Assembly (NCBI GenBank): GCA_903860135.1
Contig: CAIOPG010000017.1
Location: 11,364 to 75,363, forward strand
Direction of reading: 5' to 3'
Length of the DNA: 64,000 bases
Origin: Candidatus Omnitrophota bacterium
GTDB taxonomy: Bacteria; Omnitrophota; Gorgyraeia; Zapsychrales; Fredricksoniimonadaceae
The notes below the pieces were generated by a model. The model saw only the letters and a list, made by a program, of their open reading frames with translations, had not been told where the DNA came from and made no database searches. Shown here piece by piece: positions 9,513-29,578 of the stretch. Each line of letters begins with the position of its first letter. Position 1 is the first letter of the stretch. Both the position numbers and the translations under genes were made by a program.

Positions 9513-10595
9513 TTATACATTCTCCTGAAATGGCCGTAATTCCTTCAACCCTTTTAACTGATCCACCGTGCAACCGTCATCTTCGTTTCCGCGCGATAAC
9601 AATGCCTCCAACGGAATATCCGAGGTGAGCGTAAAACCCATATCACTGATCATGCGCAAGGTCCGGTTATCGGCAGCCCCCTTCGCATTCAAATACCCCT
9701 GCAAGAACAGCGAATTTGCCGCGTAGAGCCCCAGCGGCTCCAGCGAACGCAGATGCAGTTCCCGCCCGGCGGCCATCCTGATCTCTGCCGACGGGTTCAT
9801 CAGGCGGAACAGGCAGAGCACACGCAGACAATATTCAGGTGTCAACCCAACCGCCGCCTTGATGGCAATGCCGGCAACAGGAATCAGAAAGTTAACCGGA
9901 ATAGACGCTGCCCCGGCATCGCGCAGGGTCCGGGCCATGCCATAAACATCATCCGGCCCTTCGCCCATGCCAATGATCACGCCCGAACAAACCGGCAAGC
10001 CTGCCGTTTGGGCCGCCCGGAGCGTCCCCAGGCGATCCGCATAGGTATGACTCGTGCAAATGTACCGGTAGTACTTCTCGGATGTATTGATATTGTGATT
10101 CAGACGATCCAGTCCCGCTTCTTTTAATTGGCGCGCCTGATCCGTATTCACAACACCCGGTGACACGCAAACCTCCATATGGTGCCGGCGCTTGATCTCG
10201 CGGATCAACCGCACCAGATGAGCGATCCGGCTGTCCGAAGGCCCTGTCCCCGAAAACACCAGGCAGTAACGCCCGGCTCCGGCCGCATGGGCCGCGGCGG
10301 CCTCGGCATAAATTTCTTCATCAGACTTCATCGCGTACCCTTCGATCGGCGCCGATGATGACGCCGACTGCGCGCAATAACGGCAATCCTCCGGGCACAT
10401 CCCGTTCTGGACATTGTTGAGGATGTGCACCGTCACGGTCCTGCCAAAATACTGACGGCGGAACCGGTAAGCCAGCGCCAGCAATTCCATGGTGTCCAGC
10501 TGGTTGATATCCAGCATCCGAACGGCATCCTCGCGCGCGAGGACTTCTGATCGCGCGATCGCATCACCCATAACCTGATAATATTTGTCTTTCAT
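9513..10595 (-). CDS. bioB: Biotin synthase-family radical SAM enzyme
   Basis: CPEDCRYCAQS (BioB-type CxxxCxxC). LDRLNHNINTSEKYY...YADRLGTLRAAQTAGLPVCSGVIIGMGE aligns with E. coli BioB. Its TAA stop directly abuts the trxB ATG. Confidence 0.8.
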   Translation of the reverse strand: MKDKYYQVMGDAIARSEVLAREDAVRMLDINQLDTMELLALAYRFRRQYFGRTVTVHILNNVQNGMCPEDCRYCAQSASSSAPIEGYAMKSDEEIYAEAAAAHAAGAGRYCLVFSGTGPSDSRIAHLVRLIREIKRRHHMEVCVSPGVVNTDQARQLKEAGLDRLNHNINTSEKYYRYICTSHTYADRLGTLRAAQTAGLPVCSGVIIGMGEGPDDVYGMARTLRDAGAASIPVNFLIPVAGIAIKAAVGLTPEYCLRVLCLFRLMNPSAEIRMAAGRELHLRSLEPLGLYAANSLFLQGYLNAKGAADNRTLRMISDMGFTLTSDIPLEALLSRGNEDDGCTVDQLKGLKELRPFQENV

Positions 10596-10675: not shown

Positions 10676-12457
10676 ATGACAACAGCACACACATTCCACA
10701 TACCCGTCATGGGGACCTCATTCACCATAGATTCACCTATCCGGGTGGCTCGCTATGGCATTTCATCGGTCATTTCACTGGTCGATGACAACCTGATCGA
10801 AGATGTCCGTAAGTTTTACGCCGCGCGTTATAAAGAACCGTTCACTCCCATCAAGAAATTTGACGAAGACTGGCGTGCGCGCCGGATCACCGAATATCTG
10901 AACCTTGTCAACCGCATTGTCGGTCAACAAACAGCAGATGTCCGCGCCGCAGCTTTCGAGCCCGGTTCCGAGATCACCCGTTATTTCGACCTCATCCCCG
11001 ATGAATCAGCGTCCAAAAAACTTTACAAACGCATGCTCGATACGCAAGATGCCTCAGCACGTCAGGCACTTCAGGATGAGTTGCGCACTCATGTCATCGC
11101 GGGGCGTATCGATGTCAACATCATGACCAAGCTTGATAAGCCCAATGTGGACCGTAACGGAAATCTTTTGTCTGAAGAATTCTCCGACGCCTTGTCTGCC
11201 CTGCGCGGATTTGCCCAAAGCACGATCAACGGTGCCATCGAACTCTCGGCCGGATTTAACCGCCGCCTTTACACCTATATTGAAGAATTTGCTGATTTCT
11301 ATGCTGATGCGGTCGGAGACTTCAAGAAAGAGATCATCCTTAAAGTGAGCGATTACCGTTCCGCCATCACCCAGGGAAAATTTCTTGCCCGCAAAGGCCT
11401 TTGGGTATCCGAGTTCCGCATCGAATCCGGACTGAATTGTGGCGGTCATGCTTTTGCCGGATCGGGCAATCTGATGGGACCTGTCCTTGAGGAATTCAAA
11501 CAAAAGCGCCAAGAGCTCATCAGCCAACTTGACGGCTTCTGCCGTGAAGCCCTCAAATTAAAAGACAGGATCGTGCCTTCCGCCCCGCTTTCTTTCCGTG
11601 TTACCGCGCAAGGCGGTATCGGTACTGCCCAGGAAGACACGTTCCTCAAGCGTTATTACGGCTTGACAACAACCGGCTGGGGATCTCCCTTCTTACTCGT
11701 TCCCGAAGCGGTGCAGATTGACAAAGATACACACCAGAAACTCGCCGCTGCCGGTGAAGATGACCTTTTCCTGAGCAACGTTTCCCCGCTCAATGTGGCC
11801 TTCAACAATCTGCGCAATTCCCTCAGTGAATTAAGGCGCTGTGAAATGATCACCGCGGGGACCCCCGGCAGCCTGTGCGTCTTAGGCCACCTGGCAACCA
11901 ATACAGAATTTACAAAGAATCCCGTATGTACCGCTTCGCGCACCTATCAAAAATTAAAACTTGAAGCTCTTAGAGCACTGGGACTGCCCCGGGAAGAATA
12001 CGAACGACAGGCCGCCAAGATCACGGACAAAGCCTGTGTATGCGCCCAACTCGGTGATAGTTTCTACAAGAATACGCTTCAGGACAAGCTCACTGGTTCT
12101 TTCCCTGCTGTATGCCCGGGGCCCAATATCGCCTATTTCAACCGTGCCGCCACGCTCAAGGAAATGATCGATCATATTTACGGCCGGATCAATATTATGC
12201 CCTTCCCCAACCGTCCCCATATGTTCATCAAGGAACTGAAACTGAACCTCAACCAGTTCGCCGAACTTTACGCCAACAAGAAACAAGAGGACGCCGAACG
12301 CAAAGACCCGGTCCGCGATGAGTTCCGGCAGAACCTCGAAGAAGGCATCACCTATTACCGCCAACTGATACCACAGATCATCGAAGAAACAGAAGCCTTC
12401 CGCGCCAGGATGCTCCAGGAACTCGACCTCTGCACCCAACGCCTCGCCACGCTGTAA
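10676..12457 (+). CDS. Conserved hypothetical protein, 593 aa (possible TIM-barrel flavin oxidoreductase-like region)
   Basis: Long uninterrupted ORF divergent from bioB. The internal segment GGIGTAQEDTFLKRYYGLTTTGWGSPFLLVPEA resembles the GGI...GT.F..PE FMN-binding motif of nitronate-monooxygenase/FabK-type enzymes. Function unknown. Confidence 0.7.
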   Translation: MTTAHTFHIPVMGTSFTIDSPIRVARYGISSVISLVDDNLIEDVRKFYAARYKEPFTPIKKFDEDWRARRITEYLNLVNRIVGQQTADVRAAAFEPGSEITRYFDLIPDESASKKLYKRMLDTQDASARQALQDELRTHVIAGRIDVNIMTKLDKPNVDRNGNLLSEEFSDALSALRGFAQSTINGAIELSAGFNRRLYTYIEEFADFYADAVGDFKKEIILKVSDYRSAITQGKFLARKGLWVSEFRIESGLNCGGHAFAGSGNLMGPVLEEFKQKRQELISQLDGFCREALKLKDRIVPSAPLSFRVTAQGGIGTAQEDTFLKRYYGLTTTGWGSPFLLVPEAVQIDKDTHQKLAAAGEDDLFLSNVSPLNVAFNNLRNSLSELRRCEMITAGTPGSLCVLGHLATNTEFTKNPVCTASRTYQKLKLEALRALGLPREEYERQAAKITDKACVCAQLGDSFYKNTLQDKLTGSFPAVCPGPNIAYFNRAATLKEMIDHIYGRINIMPFPNRPHMFIKELKLNLNQFAELYANKKQEDAERKDPVRDEFRQNLEEGITYYRQLIPQIIEETEAFRARMLQELDLCTQRLATL

Positions 12458-12503: not shown

Positions 12504-13733
12504 TTACTTGGAAATATTCCTTGCAACTGCCCGTGCGGCGGCGATGGCGCTTGACCATGCCCACTGTAGGTTGAAACCACCGATACGACCATCCACATCC
12601 AGGACTTCCCCGGCGAAATACAGACCTTCCTGTAAGCGGGACTCAAGCGTTGCGCCTTTGAGCTCTTCAAGGTCAACGCCGCCAGCTGTGACTTCGGCCT
12701 TAGCGTAGCCTGCGGTATCACCAACAGGTAACGGGCATGCGCGCAGGGACCGCTGCAAGGCGCGGCGCTCGTCCACACGCAGTTCACCTGACGGACGGAG
12801 CGGATCAACCTTGGCCAATTGAGCCAGGACAATAACAAGCCGTTCGGGCAAGTACGCGGTCAGGATATTCTTGATACTGCGCCGATTCCCGGGAATAATA
12901 ACAGTACTGATATCCTCCCCTTTAACCGTTGGCAAGAAATCAGCACGGATCTCAACCGGCCCCTGCGCCATGGCCTTAAGCCACGGTCCGGCCACCTCCA
13001 TGGCCGCCGGGCCGCTGAACCCCTGATGCGTAAAAAGGAACGGTCCTTCAACCGACAAGAGTTTTTTCCCGCCGCCCCACAACGACAAACGCACCGGCGA
13101 TGTGATCCCGCCCAGCGTGGCAAAGCTGTCATCTCCGGCGAATAAGGCGACCAAGGCGGGATGTGCGGGAACAAGGCGATGCCCGAAATTCCCGGCAAAA
13201 ACATAACCGCTGCCATCAGAACCAGTCGCGGGATAAGAAAGACCGCCCGTGGTTACAAGAACCTTCCGGGCTGACCTTAAGAAATCATGGCCGACCACAT
13301 TGAAACCAGTGCCTTCAGCCGCCAGTGAAATAACCCGGCGGCCGCATTCAATCACAGCCCCATAATGCCGTGCGGCGCGCACAAGGGCATCGCGCACCGT
13401 CGATGCCTTGTCGTCTGCCGCGAAGAATTCTCCGGAAGGCTGGACGGCCAAAGGAGCTCCCAACGCCTCAAAGAAAGCCACCGCGTCGTGCGGCGAGAAG
13501 GTTTGAAGGACATGCCGCAAGGTATGTGCGTTGCCGGCATGGAAATCTTTTGCTGTCACGCGCGCATGGGTCGCGTTACAGCGACCGCCCCCCGTGATAA
13601 GCAGTTTTAAGCCCGGCTCACGCTGGCCTTCAAGGACCAGCACATTCAGCCCAAGCCTGCCCGCCTCCGCCGCGGCCATAAGCCCTGCCGCTCCGGCGCC
13701 AATAATGATCAGGTCATATGCTGTGGCCGTCAT
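12504..13733 (-). CDS. HI0933/YhiN-family FAD-dependent oxidoreductase
   Basis: YDLIIIGAGAAGLMAA Rossmann FAD motif followed by TGGGRCN, as in the BaiN/HI0933 family. Overlaps the upstream dehydrogenase stop by 4 bp. Confidence 0.8.
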   Translation of the reverse strand: MTATAYDLIIIGAGAAGLMAAAEAGRLGLNVLVLEGQREPGLKLLITGGGRCNATHARVTAKDFHAGNAHTLRHVLQTFSPHDAVAFFEALGAPLAVQPSGEFFAADDKASTVRDALVRAARHYGAVIECGRRVISLAAEGTGFNVVGHDFLRSARKVLVTTGGLSYPATGSDGSGYVFAGNFGHRLVPAHPALVALFAGDDSFATLGGITSPVRLSLWGGGKKLLSVEGPFLFTHQGFSGPAAMEVAGPWLKAMAQGPVEIRADFLPTVKGEDISTVIIPGNRRSIKNILTAYLPERLVIVLAQLAKVDPLRPSGELRVDERRALQRSLRACPLPVGDTAGYAKAEVTAGGVDLEELKGATLESRLQEGLYFAGEVLDVDGRIGGFNLQWAWSSAIAAARAVARNISK

Positions 13734-15061
13734 AACCGCCAGTACCGGAGGCGGGATCCTTTAAAACATTCAGGATCAAAAAGCCCTTTCACATCCACGA
13801 CAACCCCCTTGCCTTTCGCCGAAGCCAGGTGGGCTTTGAGTACGGCCGGGGTCAGGATATCCTTAAACACCGCGTGATTAACCGCAATGACAATGCCGTC
13901 CAGTTTCATGTTCCTGTTGTACGTCACCAGCTCCACCGCGTATTCTGCCCTGACCTCTTCCTTGTCCGCCAAGGGATCAGCCGCAAGGACCTTAACCCCG
14001 TATTCTTTCAGTTCATTAATAATATCAATGACCCGGCTGTTGCGGATATCCGATACATTTTCCTTGAACGTGATGCCCAGGATCAGCACCTTGGCGTCCT
14101 TGACGGCTTTGCCTGCCTCGATCAACAGTTTCACCGTCTGCTGGGCGATATACTGGCCCATGCTGTCATTGATGCGGCGGCCGGCGAGGATAACCTGCGG
14201 ATGATAGCCGATCTCTTCGGCCTTGAATGTCAAATAATACGGATCAACACCAATGCAATGGCCGCCCACAAGGCCGGGATTCATCTTGATAAAATTCCAC
14301 TTGGTACCGGCCGCCTCCAGAACAGAGCGGGTATCAATGCCCATTTTGTGAAAGATCAGGGCGAGTTCATTCATGAGCGCGATATTCAGGTCGCGCTGGG
14401 TATTCTCGATAACCTTGGCCGCTTCGGCAACCTTGATCGATTGCGCCCGAAAGACGCCGGCCTTGACCACCAGGCTGTACACAGCGGCAACATCGTCGAG
14501 CGTCGCCGCATCACAGCCGGACACCACTTTGACAATACGGGTCAGGGTATGTTCCTTGTCGCCGGGGTTAATGCGTTCGGGGGAATACCCCACCTTGAAA
14601 TCCCTGCCGCACACCAACCCTGAATATTCCTCGAGGATCGGGACACAAACATCTTCGGTAACGCCGGGATAAACCGTTGACTCATACACAACCGTACTGC
14701 CCTTGGCCAGATGCCGCCCCACCAGTTCCGACGCACGCTTCAGGCAGGCCAGATCCGGGATCTTGTTGATCGTGATTGGTGTCGGGACCGCCACAATGAT
14801 GAATTTTGCCTTCCGGAGCAGTGCGGCATCATCGGTAATTGTCAGGAAAGCAGACCCGTTGAGTGCCTCCGCCGACATCTCGCCGGTATGATCATGGGCT
14901 TTCCTGAGCGCCGCGACCCGCCTGGCGTTGACATCAAAGCCAATGGTCTGGAAATTCTTCCCAAACTCAACAGCCAAAGGAAGCCCCACATATCCCAGCC
15001 CGACCACCGCGATTTTTTCTTTCCCGGTACTGATCTGTTCCGCTAATGTCATGATGATCAC
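13730..15061 (-). CDS. Nucleotide-sugar dehydrogenase (UDP-glucose/UDP-GlcNAc 6-dehydrogenase family)
   Basis: N-terminal NAD motif IAVVGLGYVGLPLA and the catalytic-Cys region GGHCIGVDP. 443 aa. Confidence 0.85.
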   Translation of the reverse strand: MIIMTLAEQISTGKEKIAVVGLGYVGLPLAVEFGKNFQTIGFDVNARRVAALRKAHDHTGEMSAEALNGSAFLTITDDAALLRKAKFIIVAVPTPITINKIPDLACLKRASELVGRHLAKGSTVVYESTVYPGVTEDVCVPILEEYSGLVCGRDFKVGYSPERINPGDKEHTLTRIVKVVSGCDAATLDDVAAVYSLVVKAGVFRAQSIKVAEAAKVIENTQRDLNIALMNELALIFHKMGIDTRSVLEAAGTKWNFIKMNPGLVGGHCIGVDPYYLTFKAEEIGYHPQVILAGRRINDSMGQYIAQQTVKLLIEAGKAVKDAKVLILGITFKENVSDIRNSRVIDIINELKEYGVKVLAADPLADKEEVRAEYAVELVTYNRNMKLDGIVIAVNHAVFKDILTPAVLKAHLASAKGKGVVVDVKGLFDPECFKGSRLRYWRL

Positions 15062-15092
15062 CTTTTTATACAGGTCTTGTTAAGGCCACGAT

Positions 15093-15150
15093 CAGCCCGC
15101 TTATACTTTCACCCGCGACAGCCAGGATTTGTTCTCCAGGTACCATCGGA
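15093..15150 (-). pseudogene. Remnant/duplicate of an epimerase gene 3' end (encodes ...KIRWYLENKSWLSRVKV*), one copy of a ~58-bp direct repeat
   Basis: About 50/58 nt identical to 18715-18772, which is the true 3' end of the epimerase gene (VQWYLDNKAWVSRVKV*). It sits immediately downstream of the stop of the giant gene. Confidence 0.55.
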
Positions 15151-15155
15151 TTTTA

Positions 15156-18100
15156 TCATTGCTTCAAAAATTGTAGCAAATTATCCATGGGTACAATATC
15201 GTGAATAATAGGCGTAAAACCTGGCGCGTCGATGTATTGCTTCAGCATCATCGGATCCGGAGCGAATTGAAGAAAGGCTTCCTGCGGACCTGATGCTACG
15301 GCCTGTGCGGCACGGTTTAAATCAATACCGCCGTCACGCGCAACAGCGGCTTGATCAAGATTAGCTATCGTGGCTCTCACCAAAGGCTCAAGATAACCGA
15401 AATCAATCGATGCGATCTCTTGACTGAAATACTTGTTCAACAGCAAAATATGCGGCACATAAAAAGAGATAGGATTCGGAAACTGCCCTTCAAACAACTT
15501 TTTTACTAAAGATGCAACAGATTCAACCGCGTATTGACGCCAATTGGCTCCAAAATCTCTTCCCTCGATCGGCTCAGCCACCCATAAACGATGAAACTGC
15601 TCACTATCACCGCTGATTACTGCTAATAAGACCTGCATGAAGATCAATTCTGCCTGGCTACTAAGAGAACGCGAACTTCCAACCTCGTGACGTATTTTAA
15701 ACAAAACACGCTCAATAAGTATCTGACTTAAAGACATCGTATTAATATTACCCGCGATTATGTAGTCGGTCCAATAGAGAGACTTCTCCTTCTCTGTAAA
15801 ATAAAAGCCATAGTTATCCCCATAAACCTCTCCTAATAAATTAATATAAAATCGATTATGTCTTGAAAAAAAGAAGCCTGGCACTCTTTCGGAAGCACCG
15901 GCAAGTTCCTGCGCGGCACCCTCCTTAAAAACATGGAACACGCGCACCCGATGATCATCAGCCGCTTGTTCAAGCCCGTATTTCTTTATGCTCGCTTTAG
16001 TATCGCTCCCACGCATAAATGCAGAATAATACTTAGCCTGAATAACCTGCTCCTGATGCAATTGTTCCGTCACAGTAACAAGATCCTTGATCTCCCGCCC
16101 TTGAACGCGTAACATTTCTTTGGCATGATCGTCATCCACCGAAAAGACCCATACAATATTTTTCGGCAGATCCTTGAACATGGCGCGTGCCGCATCTATG
16201 TTCTGCGGGACAAGGATCCCGTTGGTGATCACATATACTTCTGTCGCGGCTGTTGACGCGGCTTTAAGGACTTCAATAAAATCTTCTGACAAACCGCCTT
16301 CGTTCATTTTCTTTTTGCCAAAAACCATAGTCTCACCGGGGCCGAGCAGGCGGATGCGATCAGCGCCATGCACCATGTCTATCCTTCTCAGTATCTCCTC
16401 TTTCGAAAGTTCTCCGTTAGACCCAGCCTCCTTGCGCAGATTGGCTGCAATGCACATAGGGCAGTTGAACGGACACCGGGCTGTCAGCATCAGGCTGAAA
16501 TCATTCCTTAGCGAAGCTTCGTAAGGATAAAGAAAATTGATCAACTCAAAGGCTCTTGTAACAGGAGATTTCTTTTCCTCCTGTTTAAGAACCTCTGCTT
16601 TCATATGGGGGATATCAATAAGATCCAACACGCTTGTGACCATCGACTTCCCGGATGTTGTTACTCCTTTGGGAATCTCCACGGTCCTAACAAGTTCCTG
16701 AAATCCCTGAAAACGGCGCTCGATCAATACCTTCCAAAATAATCTTTTCTGCTCGGAGGGTTTATACCTTTTACTGCTCGACAGGCATTTCGACAGAGCC
16801 TCAGAAGTTAAGAAAGACTCCTGCCTTGAAAGGTAAGCGATAAATGCTTTGCTATCATTTATTTCTTTCAAAAGAGATCCGAACTCGTAACTTGTATTGA
16901 AATCAACCGCTGGAATAGGTAAACGGGGGCGCTGGTTATCATCATCATTTGAAAAACCCTCTTGCATTAAAAGCATGGCCAACACCGGGAACATTGAGGT
17001 TCGATATTGCTCGTATATCTTCATGTAATCATCACGAGAAAGATGGTTACGTTCCCTGTCATTAGGAAAAACAAATGTAAGTCGCGTATTCCAAGGCATA
17101 TCTGATAGTGATCGTCCTTGTTGATTGAAATAAGACTGCAAAGCTCTCTTGATATCCTTCTCATTAAGATATGGTGTCATGATCGAACGAACAACTATTT
17201 CCTGATACACCGCCCAAACAGATTTCCAACTATCGTCGGCATCGCCTGCAAGTTCCCAAAGGCCACTACTTACAAGGTAATCATGGAACATTTCAGGAGT
17301 TAAATGCAACAAATGCCGCTTGGCATCCCTCAGTTTTATCGGATCAAGCGTATCCATTGCATTGAGCCAGCCAACCACATCATTGGGGGCAATGACCGCT
17401 GCCTCGGCACGGTTTGCTCCCGCATGAACAAGTTGAAGCCCGGGGATGGTATTGACCGCCTCAGGGGGAATCACGTTAATTGGGGTGTTATCCGCCCCCA
17501 GGACAATCCCTCCTGAAAAATATTTCCTCGGCACCATCTCCCCGTCCAGAGGATCGCGTTCTTCACGGACAAGATTGACTTCTCCCCGGTGGAATGCCTC
17601 AACATAACGCGCCCATATCTTCTCCGGCATTTTCAGGTCATCAATATCCACACCCGCCACTTTATTGCGGCTCACATACGTTCTTTCCAAAATACTGCCC
17701 CTGACCTTGCGTTTATACCACCCGGCAAGGATCACGGCATAACAAATCTGGCGAAGCCGCGCAAAAGCCCTGTCCTGATTGACCGCACGTTCAAGCTCTG
17801 GTAAAACAGCTTCCCTTAAGACTTGAGCTGCCAGATCCATTGCTTTTCCGGAAACGACCTTACTGGCTTTCGTGAGAACAGAATGTTCAAGGGCGGCATA
17901 ATCACTTTCCAGCATGACCTTCAGATGACAACCAGCCACATACACGCGATCCTTGTTTTCGGACACACGCGCCTCATCGGGGATGATCCAGACTTTGTTA
18001 AACACATCCAAGGGGATATCCGTTGTGCCAAACTTCTCAAAAGCCCTGGCGTATATCTTTGCCCAGAAAGCCTTGCCCGACGTCACGTCAGGGTGCAGTA

Positions 18101-18524
18101 GCCGTGATGCCACTTGTTTCAAGGTAAGATCCTGGTCCAAAAGATCGCGGCCCATTTCTGTCCTGCCAAAAGCCGGGGGCATAATGCGCCCTTTTTCATA
18201 GGGGCTGAGGTTAACCCATAGATCACCATCGGGCACCGTGAGCGCTGTCAGGAAATATTTGATCGCACGATTAGCTTCGGCGTTTAATCCAGGCACAGCC
18301 ACCGACGAACCAGGATCGAGGATAAAATCAAACTCCAAGGGATCATCCAAATGAACTTTCAACCCCCGTAATAATGGAAGATTATCCGCCAAGGCCGTAA
18401 CCGGACGGATCGAAGGAAGCATAGCGGGGATCCCTTGGGCCAAAGCTGGTGGCACAAGGCTGGTTGAGATAAAAGCCAGAAGTACCCCCACGCATAAAAT
18501 TCTTTTGATCAACAAACTAACCAT
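15156..18524 (-). CDS. Giant (~1,122 aa) low-GC protein with N-terminal Sec-type signal peptide and an embedded radical SAM core; function unknown
   Basis: The track ORF begins at a GTG codon (18531-18533, reverse strand); the ATG at 18522-18524, codon 4 of that ORF, is the likely start, preceded by the SD AGGTGAGGGGG. N-terminus MVSLLIKRILCVGVLLAFISTSLVPPALA|QG has an AXA cleavage site. Mid-protein CPFNCPMC (CxxxCxxC), then LLGPGETMV (GGE-like) and VYVITNGILV (TNG motif). GC is about 38-40%, versus 52-62% in neighbouring genes. Confidence 0.85.
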   Translation of the reverse strand: MVSLLIKRILCVGVLLAFISTSLVPPALAQGIPAMLPSIRPVTALADNLPLLRGLKVHLDDPLEFDFILDPGSSVAVPGLNAEANRAIKYFLTALTVPDGDLWVNLSPYEKGRIMPPAFGRTEMGRDLLDQDLTLKQVASRLLHPDVTSGKAFWAKIYARAFEKFGTTDIPLDVFNKVWIIPDEARVSENKDRVYVAGCHLKVMLESDYAALEHSVLTKASKVVSGKAMDLAAQVLREAVLPELERAVNQDRAFARLRQICYAVILAGWYKRKVRGSILERTYVSRNKVAGVDIDDLKMPEKIWARYVEAFHRGEVNLVREERDPLDGEMVPRKYFSGGIVLGADNTPINVIPPEAVNTIPGLQLVHAGANRAEAAVIAPNDVVGWLNAMDTLDPIKLRDAKRHLLHLTPEMFHDYLVSSGLWELAGDADDSWKSVWAVYQEIVVRSIMTPYLNEKDIKRALQSYFNQQGRSLSDMPWNTRLTFVFPNDRERNHLSRDDYMKIYEQYRTSMFPVLAMLLMQEGFSNDDDNQRPRLPIPAVDFNTSYEFGSLLKEINDSKAFIAYLSRQESFLTSEALSKCLSSSKRYKPSEQKRLFWKVLIERRFQGFQELVRTVEIPKGVTTSGKSMVTSVLDLIDIPHMKAEVLKQEEKKSPVTRAFELINFLYPYEASLRNDFSLMLTARCPFNCPMCIAANLRKEAGSNGELSKEEILRRIDMVHGADRIRLLGPGETMVFGKKKMNEGGLSEDFIEVLKAASTAATEVYVITNGILVPQNIDAARAMFKDLPKNIVWVFSVDDDHAKEMLRVQGREIKDLVTVTEQLHQEQVIQAKYYSAFMRGSDTKASIKKYGLEQAADDHRVRVFHVFKEGAAQELAGASERVPGFFFSRHNRFYINLLGEVYGDNYGFYFTEKEKSLYWTDYIIAGNINTMSLSQILIERVLFKIRHEVGSSRSLSSQAELIFMQVLLAVISGDSEQFHRLWVAEPIEGRDFGANWRQYAVESVASLVKKLFEGQFPNPISFYVPHILLLNKYFSQEIASIDFGYLEPLVRATIANLDQAAVARDGGIDLNRAAQAVASGPQEAFLQFAPDPMMLKQYIDAPGFTPIIHDIVPMDNLLQFLKQ

Positions 18525-18721
18525 CCCCCTCACCTTTCATCAATGAAGAAGTGTTATATTTATTACGGCAATAGGACAAATCATGGGTAATAAACGAATT
18601 GTGCGCTGATTATTAAGACTATTAAAAAAATCCGAGATTAAATGCTATCCACCTGAACTTCAGATATAACCATAACATTTAACCCGCATTCTTTCAATAC
18701 GGGTTCTGCGCAACAGCCCGC
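18525..18721 (-). promoter_or_regulatory. AT-rich (~190 bp) upstream region of the giant gene containing its RBS and probable promoter
   Basis: The only long AT-rich intergenic tract in this gene string. Strong SD (AGGTGAGG) 6-7 nt before the ATG. On the minus strand there is a possible -35/-10 pair, TTGAAA-N17-TATGGT (about 18669-18697). No experimental support. Confidence 0.4.
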
Positions 18722-18772
18722 TTATACTTTCACCCGCGATACCCAGGCTTTGTTGTCTAGGTACCATTGAAC
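18715..18772 (-). repeat. Second copy of the ~58-bp direct repeat (the intact 3' end of the epimerase gene)
   Basis: cagcccgcttatactttcacccgcga.a.ccagg.tttgtt.tc.aggtaccat..ga is shared with 15093-15150. Confidence 0.6.
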
Positions 18773-19690
18773 TGTCCGGCGAACGCCTTCGTCGAGCCCG
18801 ATCTTCGGCTTCCAGGCCAGCAGGCGTCCGGCTTTCTCGATATTTGCCCACGTGGCTTTGATGTCCGTCTTGTGGAAAGCTTTCTCCTGGCGCGTCGAAG
18901 GCTTGCCGAGGTATCGCTCGATAAGGGCGATGGCTTCATTCAAGTCATAGGGACGATTCCCACCCAGGTTGATCGTCTCAAAACCGACCTTCTTCAGCGC
19001 CTTGATGGTGCCGTCGGCAATGTCATCGACATAAGTGAAATCACGGCGCTGGGTCCCGTCACCAAACACCTCCATGGCCTTGCCTTCATCGATCCACTTG
19101 ATAAAGCGGAAAATGCACATGTCCGGGCGTCCCGCTGGACCGTAGACCGTAAAATAACGCACCACCGACACATCGATTCCGTAAAGATAGTGGTACGTAT
19201 ACGCCATCACTTCTGCCGCCTTCTTGCTCGCGGCATAGGGTGAAATCGGCGTATTGACCGGAAGATCCTCGTTGAAGGGCATCTTCTGACCGGCGTAAAG
19301 CGATGATGTTGACGCCAGGACAAATTTCTTCACCTTGTATTCCCGGCAAAGCTCCAGGACATTGAGCGTCCCGTTGGCATTGGTCGTCATATAAATAAAA
19401 GGATTTTCCATGCTGTAACGCACGCCGGCACGCGCCGCCAGGTTCATCACGGCATCAAAAGCATGGGTTTTGAAAATACGTCGCAGAAAAGAAATATCTT
19501 CAATATCCCCCTTGTAGAATGTAAAGCCGGGATACTTCTTCAACGCTTTCAGCCGGAACTGTTTCAGGCGCACATCGTAATAATCATTCATGTTATCCAC
19601 TCCGACAACATGAACCCCTTGCTTGAGCAGTTTCTCGGCGGTACACGCCCCAATGAACCCTGCCGCGCCAGTCAATAAGATCGTTTTCAT
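18722..19690 (-). CDS. NAD-dependent nucleotide-sugar epimerase/dehydratase (UDP-glucuronate/UDP-GlcNAcA 4-epimerase-like SDR)
   Basis: ILLTGAAGFIGACTAEKLL Rossmann motif and the YAASK catalytic motif of extended SDRs. 322 aa. Confidence 0.85.
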   Translation of the reverse strand: MKTILLTGAAGFIGACTAEKLLKQGVHVVGVDNMNDYYDVRLKQFRLKALKKYPGFTFYKGDIEDISFLRRIFKTHAFDAVMNLAARAGVRYSMENPFIYMTTNANGTLNVLELCREYKVKKFVLASTSSLYAGQKMPFNEDLPVNTPISPYAASKKAAEVMAYTYHYLYGIDVSVVRYFTVYGPAGRPDMCIFRFIKWIDEGKAMEVFGDGTQRRDFTYVDDIADGTIKALKKVGFETINLGGNRPYDLNEAIALIERYLGKPSTRQEKAFHKTDIKATWANIEKAGRLLAWKPKIGLDEGVRRTVQWYLDNKAWVSRVKV

Positions 19691-19698
19691 AGCTATCG

Positions 19699-21348
19699 TT
19701 ACTCCTTGCGGTTCCGGTATTTTTCGGTCACCTTAAACTCCATATATCTCCCGAGCATCAGCCGCGTCTGCGCGTCGATCGCCGGTATAGAGCTGAGGGC
19801 CAGGATAACCACCGGAATGGCCAGCCAGTCAAATAAATGCAACAGCTTCTGCCGGAACCGGAGGCGTATCGTACTTGTTGATAAGAGTTCAATGCTGATC
19901 ACCATGCACACAACCAGTCCTGCCAGCGAAAGGCTGAAAATGATGTCCTTGATCCTTGGCGCCATGTAGTACATGGTCGTTGTGCCGAATTCCCGTCCGG
20001 CGAAGAAAGCCGGGAACAAATTAATAATGACCAGCAGGAACGATAGTGTTGCCCAGGATATGAACATGTCAAACAAGCGGAAGCTGAACATGACCTTCTT
20101 GTACAGCGATATGCCCGGCGACTGAAGGAAAGCGCGCATGACAATGGGCAGATTCTCAACACCCCAGGCCCAGCGGCGTTTTTGTTTGTAAATATTGATG
20201 AAAGTACCCAGCGATGTCTGCCCGCCGGCGATATCCATGGAGACCGTGGTGTAGATCGGAACAACCTGATAATTCCCGTCGTAATGAATGAATGATTTCC
20301 AGAAAATAGCCGAATCATCGGAGATCATGTCCACGGGCCAGTACCCCACTTCAACGAGAGCCTTGAAACTCATGCTGTGGCTTGAAAATGTCACCAGCTT
20401 TTCAGGGTTGGTGCACTCGACCAGCTGAAAGAATGAAGCCCCGATATCAATGACACGGGCAAAGCCCGGCACATCCCACAGATTGTTGTAATAGACCGGA
20501 ATGGGTTGATAACTGGCACGGGTACGCGAAGGCGTGATCATAAAATAATACGTCAGGCAGGCCAAATAGTCCCGGTGCGCCACCGTGTCGGCATCAAAGC
20601 AAGACACGATCACGTGCTCGAACGGGATGCCCTTGTCTGTCAACCATTGCCCGGCATGCCTGGCCGCCCAGGTCGCATTAGCACCCTTGACCCGTGACTC
20701 ACCCTCGATATCGGCCGGGTGTTCGACAACAAGAAAAGCCATGAACCTGGCGGCATACAACGCCTTCAGCGCATACACATCACGTTTAACCTCTGCCGAG
20801 GCTCTGGCCTCGAGTGCCACAACAAAGACCACACGATCCGTCGGATAAACACCAGCCGCAAGCCCGCGGATGCCGGGTTCGATCACATGACGTGATTCGC
20901 GGGCGACCGGAAGGATGATCACATGATGAATACGCGCTACGTCGGGTGGACACGCACCGGTCTTTCTTAACGCAGCTATTTGATTGCGGCGGATCCGCCG
21001 GGCTATATGTTGGCGCGGCGTGAGCGGAACTTTAGAACGTACCGCCAGCGTCTGCAGCAGGCTGTCGAGATCATGCATGCCGTTGATCAAACGCATCCAT
21101 TCTGTTTCTTTCTCAATGGCCAGCCGGGAATACGACACCCCCAGGAAGAAATTCATGTAAATAAGGCGCAAGACCCAGTAAAGCACAAACGCCACCATGA
21201 CCGCAGCCGCCCAAAGTGGCTGCGCCACCGACACGATGGCCATGCCCAGAATGATGCCCCAAGATAAAGCACCTGGCGCGATCTCGAAAAACCGCTCGAT
21301 ACGTTTTTCCTGACTATTCAGGTTATGACGGGAATAATTAAAAAGCAT
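19699..21348 (-). CDS. Processive family-2 glycosyltransferase (cellulose/chitin/hyaluronan-synthase-like), integral membrane
   Basis: N- and C-terminal TM segments. DAD (DxD) motif in SCFDADTV and the Q(x)xRW motif in KQKRRWAWG, characteristic of processive GT2 synthases. Confidence 0.85.
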   Translation of the reverse strand: MLFNYSRHNLNSQEKRIERFFEIAPGALSWGIILGMAIVSVAQPLWAAAVMVAFVLYWVLRLIYMNFFLGVSYSRLAIEKETEWMRLINGMHDLDSLLQTLAVRSKVPLTPRQHIARRIRRNQIAALRKTGACPPDVARIHHVIILPVARESRHVIEPGIRGLAAGVYPTDRVVFVVALEARASAEVKRDVYALKALYAARFMAFLVVEHPADIEGESRVKGANATWAARHAGQWLTDKGIPFEHVIVSCFDADTVAHRDYLACLTYYFMITPSRTRASYQPIPVYYNNLWDVPGFARVIDIGASFFQLVECTNPEKLVTFSSHSMSFKALVEVGYWPVDMISDDSAIFWKSFIHYDGNYQVVPIYTTVSMDIAGGQTSLGTFINIYKQKRRWAWGVENLPIVMRAFLQSPGISLYKKVMFSFRLFDMFISWATLSFLLVIINLFPAFFAGREFGTTTMYYMAPRIKDIIFSLSLAGLVVCMVISIELLSTSTIRLRFRQKLLHLFDWLAIPVVILALSSIPAIDAQTRLMLGRYMEFKVTEKYRNRKE

Positions 21349-21352
21349 ACGT

Positions 21353-22774
21353 TCATGTCCTCTTGTTCAGGAACTGATCAACAACGCTCTCGTCAGGGAC
21401 CAGCTGAACCTTCTCGAACAAACCCTGTTCGTTGATATAATACAGCCACCCTGTGTCAGGGTTGTACGCGATCGAAGAGCCTTTGCGAATAGCCGTAATA
21501 AATTCGTTGTGATCCCCGCCTTCGGGTTCAACCTCAATGAAATAAACCCTGTCATTATCGTTGCAAATGATGTGCGTTGCGGCATCGCCCCAGAAACACT
21601 GTTTAATGTCCTGGCCGCCGCTGAATACGACCTTCGTCGCCGGAGACTTGACAGCAGAAGCATCTGCAGGCCCGGGATCAACAAGCATAACGGCCGAAGA
21701 ATTCCAGTACATGAACATTTTGGCCCGCGCATGAAAAGCCATGCCCTTGACGCCTTTGTCAACGATCTGATAAGGAAAATCATTGAACAGGAGACTGCCG
21801 TCCTCACCGAGAAGGAAGATCAGCTTCTCTTCAGCGGGAGCCGATATATGATAAAAAGTATTCTTGTCCAGGAGAGCCTTGTCAAAATGATGCCCCTCCA
21901 GGAATGATTCTGTTTTGGTTTTATCACGCCCATATTTGATAAAACGGTTATCCGCCGTCATGAGATAAACCCGGTTATTATGAAACCCGACCCCCTTGAC
22001 CCCGTTGATATCACGCGGATAAATAACACCAGCCTCAATATCCACACGATCAATGTAATTGGTATACACCGCAAAGAGTTCATTGGTGTTCGACGGATCC
22101 CATTCGATCAGCAGGGGGTCTTTGAGGAAAAACCTGGTAATGTCGGCGAAGACCGGTCTTCCTCCCTTGAGCATCACCCACAAATATTTTCTCTCGAGCA
22201 AGCCACCGCCGTAAATGATGAATGAACGGCTGTTCTCTTGATGGGACAACGAGAGCACCGGAAAATCAAACCAAGGGGATCCCGGTTCAAGCAGTGGCAT
22301 TGATTTATCATTTTTTAAATTATACACCTCAATGCCGCCAAGATCATTGCCCCTGGACAATAAAAGAAAATCAGTGCCTGGCATCGGGAATAATTGACGG
22401 AACGCTCCCTTCAAGGGTGCTTGGGGCAAAAGATCATTGGGCAAAAGAAGGGCTTTTTCAAAGACCGAGGCCTTGCCTGCCCTGACAGCTACAGACTGCG
22501 TCCACGGCCGATGCCCGGGCATGGAAAGCGTCACACGGTAATCCCCAGGGCGCAGCTGGTCGATCGTCGCAGGTGTTTTACGGACAAACCGGCGATGCTC
22601 CAGATAAATAACCGCCCCCGGCGGTATCGAAGACAAATGGATAAGCCCTGTGCGCTCAACTTCGCGCGTGAAAGGGTCAAAGATATACCCCGAAGCATAC
22701 AGCAGAAGCCCCGGGCATAAGATCAGGTAGATCAAAAGAAAAAGATAGAATAGGATGCGGCGCACGATCAACAC
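21353..22774 (-). CDS. Membrane-anchored PEGA-domain protein with C-terminal beta-rich domain
   Basis: N-terminal TM helix, then a PEGA-like segment (IPPGAVIYLEHRRF...PGDYRVTLSMPGHRPW). It is 4 bp upstream of the GT2 start, so probably co-transcribed. Confidence 0.7.
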   Translation of the reverse strand: MLIVRRILFYLFLLIYLILCPGLLLYASGYIFDPFTREVERTGLIHLSSIPPGAVIYLEHRRFVRKTPATIDQLRPGDYRVTLSMPGHRPWTQSVAVRAGKASVFEKALLLPNDLLPQAPLKGAFRQLFPMPGTDFLLLSRGNDLGGIEVYNLKNDKSMPLLEPGSPWFDFPVLSLSHQENSRSFIIYGGGLLERKYLWVMLKGGRPVFADITRFFLKDPLLIEWDPSNTNELFAVYTNYIDRVDIEAGVIYPRDINGVKGVGFHNNRVYLMTADNRFIKYGRDKTKTESFLEGHHFDKALLDKNTFYHISAPAEEKLIFLLGEDGSLLFNDFPYQIVDKGVKGMAFHARAKMFMYWNSSAVMLVDPGPADASAVKSPATKVVFSGGQDIKQCFWGDAATHIICNDNDRVYFIEVEPEGGDHNEFITAIRKGSSIAYNPDTGWLYYINEQGLFEKVQLVPDESVVDQFLNKRT

Positions 22775-22777
22775 GTA

Positions 22778-24430
22778 TCAAGCACCCTTTCGTTGTACAA
22801 CCTGAGGCGGCACCGTGATCCTGACCACAAAAGCATCGCCCACCTTGGCCAGCAATTCCGCAGGGAATCCGTTCCGGCGGCAAGCTGCTTCAAGGCTCTC
22901 CCATGTATGATCATTGACGATCCCATAACTGACCGGCTGGCCCTGCAAGAAAGCAAACAGCTTCTCATCCGTATTCAGGTCAGGCACAGGGTGCGGGCTG
23001 AAGAAATTGGCATTACTGAAATTCAACAGGACCACATCCCTGCCGGAATAATACTTCACCGCCCGTATAAAGAACTTCGACGCCATGATCTTCCCGTCCA
23101 TCGCGGGCTGCTGCATCAAATAGGCCACGGCGGCCTGCGATGAAACATAAGGATCGATCTGCCGGCTTGCCGTTAATGCCAGGAACAGGAGCAAGGGCAC
23201 CTGCAACCCGAAAAGATAAACAGCGCGGCGGATATTATTTTGCAGAAACAGACTGCCGATGATCACAAGAAAAAGTATCTCAACCATCATGATAGCGCCA
23301 AGATGCAACGGTTCCGGAAGGTACGCAGGATATTTTTCACCCGCCACAAAGATCAATACCGGGACGAACAAAAAGAACACAAATGTCGTTACCTCCATCC
23401 AGCCAGGGCGCTTGAGTTGATCCAGCCGCTCCGTCAAATACGGACCGGCCAGCAATGCCAGCGCAGGGAACAAAGGAAAAATATAACTCACCAGCTTGGA
23501 ATGCGCCGGCTGAAAAACAACCAGCACCACGACGATCCATACCAAAAGGAACTGCTCGAATGGCTCTGCTTTTTTATCCAGTGAAGCTTTGATCGCCATC
23601 CATAGTGAAACGGCAACAGCGAGGATCCAGGGAAACATACAGCCGAGCATGGCTCCCGGATAAAAATACCAGCGGTCATTGGACCTGTGCTCCGCCGATA
23701 GCAAGCGCCGCCAGTGATCATTATAAAAAAATTCATGCGTGAACCCGTGGCCATAAAGTTTGCACATGAGCGCGTACCATGGCAAGGCGATCACAACCCC
23801 CATGAACAAGCCGATCCAGAAAGCTTTTGTTAACAGGAATTTCTGCTCCCCCCGCCATAAGAGGAAGATCAGGACCGTTATCAGCGGGATGGCAAAACCC
23901 AAAGGCCCTTTGGTCAGTACCGCCAGCGCCGCAAAAACATGGAACAAGATAAGCCCGATCGTCTTACGTCCCGGCGACCGATAAGCGGCATAGAACGCCG
24001 TGAGTGCCAGCAAAATAAAGACAGAAAAGATCATGTCGGTGAACACGGTCTTGGCCAGTCCGATATAAAGGGCCGAAGTCATGAGGATAAAAGCCCCCAT
24101 GAACGCTTTGCGCTGGTCGGCATGAAACAAGCGGCCCAGAAAATACACGGTCAACACGCCCAACAGCGCGAACAAGGCCGGAAAAAATCGGGCGGCAAAC
24201 GGCGTCTGCCCAAACATTAGAAAACCGGCACGGATCAGATCATACGTCAGGACAGGCTTTTCAAACTGCGGTTGACCAAATATATACGGCGTTACCCATG
24301 TCCCGGCTGTCGCCATTTCCTTGGCCGTTCCGGCATAGAAAACCTCGTCAGGATTTGTTAATGGAAGAACATTATTCCCACCGAAGAAAATAACAGCCGC
24401 CAATAAAGACAGGATGATGATATGCCGCAT
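22778..24430 (-). CDS. GT39-family (ArnT/PMT-like) polyprenyl-phosphate-sugar-dependent glycosyltransferase, GT-C fold
   Basis: N-terminal NPDEVFYAGTAKEMATAGTWVTPYIFGQPQFEKPVL matches the ArnT/PMT first periplasmic loop (DE..Y..A.EM...G.W..P..G.PYF.KPPL). Multi-TM, 550 aa. Confidence 0.8.
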   Translation of the reverse strand: MRHIIILSLLAAVIFFGGNNVLPLTNPDEVFYAGTAKEMATAGTWVTPYIFGQPQFEKPVLTYDLIRAGFLMFGQTPFAARFFPALFALLGVLTVYFLGRLFHADQRKAFMGAFILMTSALYIGLAKTVFTDMIFSVFILLALTAFYAAYRSPGRKTIGLILFHVFAALAVLTKGPLGFAIPLITVLIFLLWRGEQKFLLTKAFWIGLFMGVVIALPWYALMCKLYGHGFTHEFFYNDHWRRLLSAEHRSNDRWYFYPGAMLGCMFPWILAVAVSLWMAIKASLDKKAEPFEQFLLVWIVVVLVVFQPAHSKLVSYIFPLFPALALLAGPYLTERLDQLKRPGWMEVTTFVFFLFVPVLIFVAGEKYPAYLPEPLHLGAIMMVEILFLVIIGSLFLQNNIRRAVYLFGLQVPLLLFLALTASRQIDPYVSSQAAVAYLMQQPAMDGKIMASKFFIRAVKYYSGRDVVLLNFSNANFFSPHPVPDLNTDEKLFAFLQGQPVSYGIVNDHTWESLEAACRRNGFPAELLAKVGDAFVVRITVPPQVVQRKGA

Positions 24431-24453
24431 ATAACCCTTTCCATTTATTCCAG

Positions 24454-25098
24454 CTACCGTAGTTTTCGCCCAAGAAGATACAGCGGCACCGCCTTGCCCG
24501 CAAAATTTTCCATATAGCTTCTTTGCCCCTGAAACAAAAGCACGAAGCCGTTCTTTTGAAAAAAGTCAGCGCCAGCCGATGACATGGTGCCCAGATGAAC
24601 CCCCTTCACCCCTGCTTGCGTGAAAGCTTCCACCAGTGTCCGGATCAAAGCCCCTCCTGCCCCATGCCCCCGACGATCCGCCTTGAGGTTAATATGAAGG
24701 ACCGCCGGATAATCTTCGCTGAAAGACGGCATAAAAAACTCACCCTTTAGAAAACTGGCGGCAAGACCGCCGAGCAACTTCATATTTCTGGGACGCAACA
24801 GGAGCCCCTGGCCCAGGGCATCAACACAAAGGCCGGGAATGATCTTGGTCCAAACAACCCTGTCCATTTTCTTCTCGTCCCTGGCCCCCAGAATATATCC
24901 GGCAACAACCCCGTCCACTTCAAACACCCAGATGCTTTCGGGTTCATGATCCGTAAAATACAGTGTTAATGCATCTTTCAAGAATTCCTGGCCTTCAAAG
25001 AAAACAGCGGCACTGGCGCCCATAAACGCGGTTTCAAAGGCAATCTGCCGGACAGCACTGCGGTCAGTCAACCGGTAAGGACGGATCACCGGATTCAT
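24454..25098 (-). CDS. GNAT-family N-acetyltransferase
   Basis: Acetyl-CoA binding region ...HINLKADRRGHGAGGALI... (R/Q-x-x-G-x-G/A). 214 aa. Overlaps the upstream PIG-L gene by 4 bp. Confidence 0.75.
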   Translation of the reverse strand: MNPVIRPYRLTDRSAVRQIAFETAFMGASAAVFFEGQEFLKDALTLYFTDHEPESIWVFEVDGVVAGYILGARDEKKMDRVVWTKIIPGLCVDALGQGLLLRPRNMKLLGGLAASFLKGEFFMPSFSEDYPAVLHINLKADRRGHGAGGALIRTLVEAFTQAGVKGVHLGTMSSAGADFFQKNGFVLLFQGQRSYMENFAGKAVPLYLLGRKLR

Positions 25099-26483: not shown

Positions 26484-26552
26484 AGTAATATCGAATATTG
26501 TTTTTTGAATCCGTTATTTTAACGATTCCCCCTCATTTTTACCACTACTATC

Positions 26553-27674
26553 TCAATCTCTGCTCCGGGGACGTTCTGCTGACTGGTGCGGAAGTGTCAG
26601 GCTTTCTGCCAGGGCTGGATTATCTTTCAAATTACCATAATAAAAAACAAGGCAGGCCCGGGCGCCTGATTGCTCACAAACGCTGAACTGCTCGCCAAAA
26701 ATAGCCGGTGTTTTAATGAATTTATAAGCCCCGACACACATATTAACCTTCGTGAAATCAACCACATGCTCCCGCACCTCGGCCATTTGCTCGATAAAGT
26801 CCGGCACATTATCCGGATAACTCATCACCGAAACAAATTCGACAAGGCCATCATTGACCCAGGAAGGCCAGTCCTGAAAAGCCTCATGATACGCCCTGAA
26901 GTATGACATGCACCCCGTCGTGGAAATATGAATATCCGGATGAATGGCCCGGGCTCGGGCAACGAGCTGACGAAGAAGTCCCGTCACCTGGGCGCGTTTC
27001 CAGTTTTGCCACGCCGGGGTTGCCTCACGGAAAGACATGACCCGCACAACTTTCCTGAAACGTTCCAGATTGGCGCACGTATACCCGTAAGCCGGTTTTG
27101 CGTCTGGATAACGGATATAATCAAATTGGATACCATCGAGCTGAGGATACCGCAGCAACAATTCACCGGTCATCGCCTCCAGTTCCTTGCGCACACGCGG
27201 ATCCCCCGGTTCAAGGAAATATTGGCCGTCGATCTTGTAATCCTCCAGCTTTTTCTTGGCGACCACATTTCTGGTCAGGATCCGACAGCCATACTTCTTT
27301 AACAAAGGTGCCTGCGTATTGGTACTGAGGCTCAGCAAGTTGACCCACGCATGCACCTCGATGCCCGCCGCATGCGCTTTACGGATGAACAAGGCAACAG
27401 GATCTTCTCCCACAGCCTCTAAGGCACGCGCATAAGGTGCCGCATCGCCAACGCGCGAAGGAAACCATGCCTGATTTGCCCGGTAGACTTGCAGAAAAAC
27501 GACCGTTATCCGCGCTTGCCTGGCCAATGCCACCACATCGTCCATCGCCTGTCGACTTGAAAGTACGGGCTTCTTTTCAATAAGGCTGACAAAAATACCT
27601 CGCCCTGTGGCTGTACCCGCCTGCGCTGTCCCGGCGATAAGTATGAGGGTGCTCACCATGATGGCTCCCACCAT
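26553..27674 (-). CDS. GHL10/UPF0748 (YddW-like) putative glycoside hydrolase, exported
   Basis: TIM-barrel-like motifs (VVFLQVYRANQAWFPS, GIEVHAWVN). The start was moved to the internal Met (MVGAIMVSTLILIAGTAQAG) that gives a signal peptide. Confidence 0.6.
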   Translation of the reverse strand: MVGAIMVSTLILIAGTAQAGTATGRGIFVSLIEKKPVLSSRQAMDDVVALARQARITVVFLQVYRANQAWFPSRVGDAAPYARALEAVGEDPVALFIRKAHAAGIEVHAWVNLLSLSTNTQAPLLKKYGCRILTRNVVAKKKLEDYKIDGQYFLEPGDPRVRKELEAMTGELLLRYPQLDGIQFDYIRYPDAKPAYGYTCANLERFRKVVRVMSFREATPAWQNWKRAQVTGLLRQLVARARAIHPDIHISTTGCMSYFRAYHEAFQDWPSWVNDGLVEFVSVMSYPDNVPDFIEQMAEVREHVVDFTKVNMCVGAYKFIKTPAIFGEQFSVCEQSGARACLVFYYGNLKDNPALAESLTLPHQSAERPRSRD

Positions 27675-27723
27675 GCCTTGGGCCCCGTAGCCGTTGGCGG
27701 GATACTTGGCATGAACAGGACGA

Positions 27724-29520: not shown

Positions 29521-29578
29521 TAAAAAGGACGATCTTGTTCATCTGGTTAGCCGGCCTTAAGAAAACTCCCCTTATATC

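Follow-up and report, generated by a model that had tools for sequence, protein, structure and literature searches.

The window, that is, the whole 64-kb stretch of Candidatus Omnitrophota DNA analysed here, holds an inserted segment of 3,567 nucleotides (nt) between the genes of a nucleotide-sugar epimerase and a nucleotide-sugar dehydrogenase. The segment carries one large gene, here called the payload gene, and is bracketed by two copies of a 54-nt direct repeat, one being the present 3′ end of the epimerase gene and the other a relic of its original 3′ end. The boundaries of the insertion are exact, the original gene end is retained at its far side, no machinery for mobility is encoded by it, and filled and empty alleles of the site exist within one species. 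The repeat is read, with a probability of about 0.6, as the junction signature of a single-gene insertion which took place in some strains by recombination anchored in the 3′ end of the epimerase gene. The routes which may have led there from such an anchor, i.e., homology-facilitated illegitimate recombination or a Campbell-type crossover, are put forward tentatively, at slightly less than even odds.

The features of the locus, from the epimerase towards the dehydrogenase, are the following:

18722-19690, minus strand: NAD-dependent nucleotide-sugar epimerase, 322 amino acids (aa); its close homologues are labelled UDP-glucuronate 4-epimerase by their sources, and the upstream repeat copy keeps it intact
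18714-18767, minus strand: upstream repeat copy, the present epimerase 3′ end (WYLDNKAWVSRVKV, stop) and the 8 nt GCGGGCTG, from the alignment
15147-18713, minus strand: inserted segment, 3,567 nt (3,621 nt with one repeat copy), absent from the conspecific empty-site contigs
18534-18713, minus strand: AT-rich leader, 34% GC by measurement
15156-18524, minus strand: payload gene, 1,122 aa from the ATG at 18524 (start at 18533 if the upstream GTG is used)
15093-15146, minus strand: downstream repeat copy, the non-coding relic of the original epimerase 3′ end, reading WYLENKSWLSRVKV*, from the alignment
15062-15092, minus strand: native epimerase-dehydrogenase spacer, matching the empty sites
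13730-15052/15061, minus strand: TviB-like UDP-N-acetylglucosamine 6-dehydrogenase, 440 or 443 aa (NF011729, E = 5e-146)

The direct repeat, the empty sites and the insert

Local alignment of the two sites gave one ungapped match of 54 nt (15093-15146 against 18714-18767), with 49 of the 54 positions identical (90.7%). In the orientation of the genes, the repeat is composed of 1 nt, 14 codons, the stop codon TAA and the 8 nt GCGGGCTG. All five differences are located in the 5′ 28 nt of the repeat and the 3′ 26 nt form an identical block. The codons concerned are CTA/CTG, GAC/GAG, GCC/TCC and GTA/CTG (L/L, D/E, A/S and V/L, respectively), and the differences are in frame and conservative. The relic copy starts 9 nt past the stop codon of the payload gene, is preceded by in-frame stops and has no start codon. 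A GGTACC palindrome is found at the 5′ edge of the repeat. Both edges are sharp, as no significant similarity extends past the 54 nt on either side.

The initial annotation had described this repeat as 58 nt long, with about 86% identity, and as bracketing a giant gene. The pairwise alignment finds the repeat at both sites and its bracketing position holds, but the size is corrected to 54 nt, the coordinates were one base off and the extra 4 nt are not significantly similar. Furthermore, the “first” and “second” copies of that description are the same copy (15093-15146), and the other copy is the 3′ end of the epimerase itself. The repeat has two copies in the window and none is expected by chance: with up to 3 mismatches tolerated, its 26-mer is still found exactly twice in the 64 kb, and 100 shuffles did not yield it once. 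Aligned with each other, the two flanks score 39, compared with a mean of 9.5 and a maximum of 14 for the null.

The filled arrangement was recovered repeatedly. The payload protein is 100% identical to P0001, a protein present on five contigs of 0.2-0.43 Mb from several assemblies, and a lake metagenome scaffold (L001, ENA ERZ18667937) holds the sequence of the window exactly. Filled contigs also include one of 219 kb (ENA ERZ1426842) and one of 426 kb, and the source lake metagenomes form a series with the samples SAMEA6872998 and SAMEA6872860. Homologues are labelled Candidatus Omnitrophota. Since the arrangement was independently assembled on five long contigs, it is not an assembly artefact. 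A chance similarity, or a misassembly joined at the repeat, has therefore a negligible probability. It has in its favor the metagenomic source of the assembly and nothing further, and it is refuted by the shuffles, the null scores, the five contigs and the empty sites, which match both flanks base for base.

Three conspecific contigs with an empty site were obtained through an epimerase search and a cluster look-up, with DNA available for two of them (L089 and L174) and a gene table for the third. L089 (3.6 kb) shows 95.7% nucleotide identity to the window over 3.46 kb and has the order epimerase body, one repeat copy, GCGGGCTG and ATCGTGGCCTTAACAAG...ATG of the dehydrogenase. The empty site of L174 (744 bp) is arranged in the same way. 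In both, ATCG(T/C)GGCCTTAACAAGACCTGTATAAAAAGGTGATCATCATG comes directly after the single repeat copy, and the native spacer then leads to the dehydrogenase start. From the relic stop codon to the GTG of the dehydrogenase there are 39 nt in the window (15062-15092 and the 8 nt inside the repeat), a spacing which is identical in the empty sites.

The third contig (24,431 bp, ENA ERZ1426828, carrying the epimerase P0121) includes the epimerase, a gap of 39 nt and a 443-aa dehydrogenase, with its other neighbors as in the window. Its GT2 protein (549 aa) is identical to that of the window. The two epimerases differ only by A315S and V317L (2 of 322 residues), both inside the repeat, and residues 1-314 are identical. 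The dehydrogenase (P0244) differs only by T12A, Q38K and R109S, all in the first quarter of the protein, on the side of the junction.

In more distant relatives, with 87% and 80% epimerase identity, the epimerase and dehydrogenase genes are likewise adjacent, with gaps of ~88 nt. A scan of species representatives showed the same adjacency in other phyla as well; the best dehydrogenase match in it was 70% identical, i.e., there was no close relative among these representatives. The ancestral order in this Omnitrophota species is epimerase, 39-nt spacer and dehydrogenase, and 15147-18713 is an insertion, based on the conspecific empty sites and on the adjacency in distant relatives. The initial annotation had proposed exactly this ancestral order, and the empty sites exist as it had predicted. 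No relative was found with the large gene at this site but without the repeat, and the repeat is not a dispersed intergenic element.

Two further observations concern the variability of this region. In a lineage with 89% epimerase identity (L090, 1663-2128; also L091 and L092), the epimerase-dehydrogenase spacer is 466 nt long, compared with 39-89 nt elsewhere, and contains a 104-codon ORF-like (open reading frame) fragment (MPGLFANRYRIPSTRL...) with no match in Pfam or NCBIfam. The intergenic site seems to have been altered independently there. A label of the fragment as an IS200/RAYT-type relic was dropped, as neither database gave it support. Also, positions 79-175 of L174 (window 19163-19259) include 27 differences in ~100 nt within an otherwise ~97%-identical epimerase. 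This patch forms a short mosaic tract from a much more divergent lineage.

The insert consists of the 180-nt AT-rich leader and a single real ORF of 1,122 aa. A sigma-70-like site (18697-18669, TTGAAA-17-TATGGT with an upstream TG) was detected in the leader by a consensus scan and represents a predicted promoter, and a Shine-Dalgarno sequence (AGGTGA) precedes the ATG of the payload gene at 18524. The public gene call also uses this ATG (1,122 aa, P0001); the 1,125-aa product of the GTG start had no exact match in the look-up. Compared with the sequences upstream of 40 other payload-family genes, the leader shows no similarity, and no conserved leader or promoter exists among the family members. 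The GC content of the insert is 0.467. At third codon positions (GC3), the payload gene has a value of 0.476 against 0.57-0.66 in six neighboring genes, and its codon usage is foreign-looking. The GC3 is uneven along the gene: the central module has 0.44-0.47, compared with 0.53 for the N-terminal domain and 0.63 for the C-terminal module. The conserved ends and the central module may have different histories, for instance through module swapping by recombination between paralogues.

Hallmarks of mobile elements are missing from the insert. Pfam searches showed no transposase or integrase domain in it, including its overlapping small ORFs and alternative frames, and none of the 29 larger ORFs of the window that were scanned is a recombinase gene. 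The alternative frames of the payload gene gave no other Pfam match either. No terminal inverted repeats exist at the ends of the insert. Rfam had no match in 13000-20000. There is no tRNA gene near the insertion site, the only one being a distant tRNA-Ala at 32172. A 22-nt core of the repeat gave no match in JGI metagenome contigs or in IMG/VR, a weak negative because the species is apparently absent from both, and no free attP-like copy or second target of this core was found in either.

Origin of the two gene ends and mode of insertion

The two repeat copies of the window and the single copies of L174 and L089 were compared at six variable sites, in gene orientation, including one site which varies only in L089:

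Upstream copy (present epimerase end): A C C G G A
Downstream copy (relic): G G C T C G
L174 (empty site): G C C T C G
L089 (empty site): G C T T G A

At 53 of 54 positions, the downstream relic matches the functional gene end of L174, and the same native spacer follows it. For this reason it is regarded as the displaced original end of the gene. The upstream copy differs from L174 at four positions within 19 nt (18740, 18742, 18748 and 18758), and at the protein level the epimerase departs from that of the closest empty-site strain solely in its present tail. Thus the non-coding copy is conserved and the coding copy is deviant, whereas a simple duplication with later decay of the relic would give the reverse. 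Judged from these sequences, the pattern fits an old tail that was displaced and a different functional tail that arrived with the insert, and the conservative, in-frame differences are as expected of two functional alleles and not of a decaying duplicate. The initial annotation had left open whether an epimerase 3′ fragment was duplicated or retained. The retention of the original end is supported, and because the downstream copy is the original and the present tail the deviant one, a plain target-site duplication is not the best model.

Under the preferred insertion by anchored recombination, incoming DNA would have been joined to the chromosome with the epimerase 3′ end as a homologous anchor. 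Homology-facilitated illegitimate recombination and a Campbell-type single crossover would both yield a 3′-end displacement. The left junction would lie inside the homologous sequence, giving the epimerase a slightly different functional tail, and the right junction, between AATCCGA and TGGTACC, would be a non-homologous joint which left the old tail stranded. No element-encoded recombinase would have played a part in the event. Homology-facilitated illegitimate recombination with displacement of the old 3′ end has been proposed for type VI secretion system (T6SS) and Rhs loci (PMC5361080).

The differences between the filled locus and the closest empty strain lie around the junction, with the epimerase tail affected on its left side and the first 109 dehydrogenase codons on its right, and the proteins beyond are identical. 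Since the differences cluster around the junction, filled and empty alleles are considered as distinct haplotype blocks exchanged by homologous recombination. Such exchange in the flanking genes would have swapped the alleles between strains after the insertion. In principle, the insert could also be lost through recombination between the two 54-nt copies.

Several points weigh against this interpretation. The tail of the epimerase is naturally variable among orthologues, in which the A/S and V/L changes recur, and it is polymorphic within the species, L089 having the V allele. Compared with L089 and L174 together, the present tail has only two private differences, and the enrichment is marginally significant. 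Given this variability and the few private differences, it is also conceivable that a perfect 54-nt duplication came first and was then altered by mutation or allelic conversion. A donor locus, with the payload gene after a homologue of the anchor gene, was not found in a search of 5.8 billion proteins, which leaves the anchoring step unproven. An attempt to map a donor tract from the window-private differences failed, because these are spread along the whole epimerase. The GGTACC start of the repeat and its identical 26-nt end also resemble the att site of a site-specific recombinase. Finally, in experiments of 2002 with Acinetobacter and pneumococcus, homology-facilitated illegitimate recombination is said to have usually deleted, and not duplicated, recipient DNA.

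Three other origins of the repeat were weighed. A linear foreign fragment may have been ligated into staggered breaks 54 nt apart, or may have entered by a replicative template switch. Either way, the two copies of the native tail would have been identical at first, and mutation together with allelic recombination with other strains would have set them apart later. This simple duplication of the target is judged unlikely. The missing donor with an epimerase-plus-payload arrangement speaks for it, as do the 26-nt 3′ block still identical between the copies and the hot spot of polymorphism in the tail, where four haplotypes of the species differ at 3-5 sites; recombination mosaics such as the L174 tract are common in the population. 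Nevertheless, duplication would have to explain why the non-coding relic is the conserved copy and why the selected coding copy has changed, at four sites in 19 nt, when the closest empty-site strain has the same residues at the other 314 epimerase positions and at all 549 positions of GT2. It would also have to account for copy differences that are all in frame and conservative. Moreover, known transposases produce target duplications of 2-14 bp, and 54 nt is far outside this range.

The second origin, considered improbable, is the site-specific integration of a small integrase-less element of the cis-mobilizable type by a recombinase acting in trans and crossing at the GGTACC palindrome. The element would carry a 46-nt mimic of the epimerase end which restores the gene, like e14 or phage 21 at icd or islands at tRNA genes, and its circular junction would read ...AATCCGA-TGGTACC...GCGGGCTG-TTGCGCAG, i.e., ...TTTTTGAAGCAATGATAAAATCCGA-TGGTACC...GCGGGCTG-TTGCGCAGAACCCG. 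The layout is indeed attL/attR-like, with a gene-restoring arm and, at the far side, a displaced original end with conservative substitutions, comparable to the icd and icdC ends which flank e14 (PMC13626634). The empty sites are precise and the repeat edges sharp. On the contrary, no recombinase gene exists in the insert or among the scanned ORFs of the window, neither JGI metagenome contigs nor IMG/VR viral contigs contain the 22-nt core, and the leader is unlike the upstream regions of other family members, of which 1 in 40 has a flanking repeat, and that an intergenic one of hairpin type. The third origin reverses the polarity: the insertion would be older than the diversification of the strains, and the conspecific empty sites would be secondary losses via the 54-nt repeats. 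Little credence is given to it, even though the protein tail of the closest empty strain (P0121, D-S-L) could come from one crossover between the window copies, placed between the D/E and A/S codons, with the upstream copy supplying the 5′ part and the downstream copy the 3′ part, and even though the divergence of the copies (9%) is about twice the genome-wide divergence of the strains (4.3%). A single crossover between the window copies can yield neither the L174 nor the L089 haplotype, so these empty sites are not simple excision products. In addition, all outgroups are without the payload gene, and its GC3 has not shifted toward that of its neighbors.

The payload protein, its family and the genomic setting

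The payload protein begins with a Sec-type signal or anchor, MVSLLIKRILCVGVLLAFISTSLVPPALA/QG, as read from its sequence. Its N-terminal domain of ~340 aa (residues ~1-345) shows 43-57% identity to the homologues listed and has 71 invariant columns in the family alignment (A1). The C-terminal module of ~60-70 aa (GGIDL...DPAML...PVI) has nearly invariant columns in the same alignment, and BLASTP matches reach residues ~1045-1120 in 58 of 119 homologues. No Pfam model exists for these shared N- and C-terminal domains. A sequence search of the PDB found nothing, and an AlphaFold2 model of the N-terminal domain (pLDDT 66, pTM 0.54) gave nothing at E < 0.1 in Foldseek against the PDB.

The central module (about residues 640-900) contains the motif CPFNCPMC (CX3CX2C) within the Pfam stretch of aa 683-784 (numbered from the upstream GTG). 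The match to PF04055 reaches 22.6 bits against a cut-off of 29.5, and those to viperin, MoaA and W-maturase models are far below their cut-offs. The module may, weakly, be called radical-SAM-like (SAM, S-adenosylmethionine). The nearest homologue with such a module (P0002, 34-45% identity) conserves the motif, and its gene adjoins BamD/LptE-like genes, an unrelated context. No close relative of the payload protein was found in the search of 5.8 billion proteins.

The family (relatives P0002-P0120 and P0364-P0454, loci L094-L173) is large. A profile search retrieved 6,809 clusters at 50% identity with E <= 1e-30, mostly from Omnitrophota. The central module is swapped among relatives, which carry methyltransferase, GNAT, HATPase, PEP-utilising (phosphoenolpyruvate), GT1 or B12-radical SAM modules in its place. 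An export signal is thus found in an odd pairing with what appear to be cytoplasmic-type enzymes dependent on SAM, ATP or acetyl-CoA. For long membrane-associated multidomain proteins of Omnitrophota, a preprint (bioRxiv 10.64898/2026.06.07.730766) lists the same range of modules, with methyltransferase, GNAT, HATPase, GT1/starch synthase and radical SAM, and N-terminal signal or transmembrane segments are likewise shared. With 1,122 aa, the payload protein is not a true “giant”, and the shared ~340-aa N-terminal domain and ~65-aa C-terminal module did not come up when the preprint was searched by terms.

Flanking repeats were sought at 80 family loci from metagenomes, 40 of which have both flanks. 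Only one of these 40 (L130) has a direct repeat above the null. It is a perfect 30-nt repeat, GAGAAGGGGACAGCCTCCTTCAACTTTTAA, at 9710-9739 and 13684-13713, around a 1,223-aa family gene, with a hairpin-like core. It is intergenic and not a gene end, a related motif occurs further upstream, and it is probably a dispersed terminator or REP-like (repetitive extragenic palindromic) element. A cassette mechanism for the whole family was rejected, as flanking repeats exist in 1 of 40 loci and are of hairpin type. With one such locus in 40, this is no general mode of mobilisation in the family, and the insertion at the epimerase stands as a single event. It is very improbable that the 3.6-kb unit is a self-contained integrase-less cassette, that the family members are effectors exported into host or prey cells and that their gain and loss reflect an arms race. 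If true, the signal peptide and the common N-terminal domain and C-terminal module around swapped enzymes would suit delivery by putatively parasitic nanobacteria.

The window belongs to the core chromosome and includes the genes of fumarase, citrate synthase, IF-2, NusA, RuvB, tRNA synthetases and Dxr. A surface-glycan cluster with STT3-like, GHL10, PIG-L, GNAT, PMT-like, PEGA and GT2 genes, the epimerase and the dehydrogenase has the insertion site at its end. Within 19699-32110, an STT3-like oligosaccharyltransferase (29579-32110, plus strand) is found together with a PMT/ArnT-like transferase, a PEGA-domain protein, GT2, a PIG-L deacetylase, GNAT and GHL10, a combination of protein-glycosylation type in an Omnitrophota genome. 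Elsewhere in the window, an ORF of 593 aa (10676-12457, plus strand) is the sole plus-strand gene within a long minus-strand array. It has no match in Pfam, NCBIfam or PADLOC and is kept in both filled and empty contigs, where it is called with 582-593 aa.

Comparison with known systems

The insertion scar is well documented and represents a clean but ordinary gene gain at the level of strains, not a new kind of element. Such a case is rare for an uncultured phylum, since the gain of the gene can be read base by base, with filled and empty alleles and with old and new gene ends available. It shows that Omnitrophota gain members of a hugely expanded family of large proteins singly, within core surface-glycan operons and with no evident machinery of mobile elements, and that presence/absence alleles circulate among co-occurring lake strains. 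Its main value is that of a dated, well-bounded example and of a pointer to the uncharacterised payload family, which is the more intriguing by-product.

Insertion sequences (IS) and transposons leave direct repeats that bracket the insert, as is the case here. However, their target-site duplications are exact and short, and they have terminal inverted repeats and a transposase. Here the repeat is 54 nt long with 91% identity, and neither inverted repeats nor a transposase is present. Every test for a transposon fails, and the insert is thus placed outside this class.

The closest likeness in layout among integrase elements is that of e14 or phage 21 at icd of Escherichia coli, with icd and the icdC pseudogene. 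As at the epimerase, the 3′ end of the target gene is found twice, the functional gene runs into the insert and the two ends differ by a few conservative substitutions (PMC13626634). Loss of e14 rejoins icd with its displaced end, according to the same source (PMC13626634, citing Hill et al. 1989). However, e14 is a prophage of ~15 kb with its own integrase and SOS-inducible excision, and the present insert, at 3.6 kb, has a single cargo gene and encodes no recombinase. The insert shares with integrative elements the repeats derived from the 3′ end of a target gene, the intact epimerase ORF and the precise empty site in related strains. On the other hand, it contains no tyrosine or serine recombinase gene, and neither a recurring core site nor a free attP was found. 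The class also leads one to expect a second instance of the site, and none was found in JGI metagenome contigs or IMG/VR. Because the recombinase is missing, the insert is left outside the class of integrase elements.

In the effector-immunity arrays of Rhs, contact-dependent inhibition (CDI) and T6SS loci, an incoming module is anchored by conserved sequence where the upstream gene ends, its second joint is non-homologous and the old 3′ end survives downstream as an orphan (PMC5361080). There, a toxin tip is displaced together with its immunity gene and the events stack into arrays, whereas here 14 codons of a housekeeping-type epimerase were displaced once, with no sign of serial events. A feature of 3′-end displacement is found at this locus, with the original 3′ end of the epimerase retained downstream of the payload gene and still attached to its native spacer.

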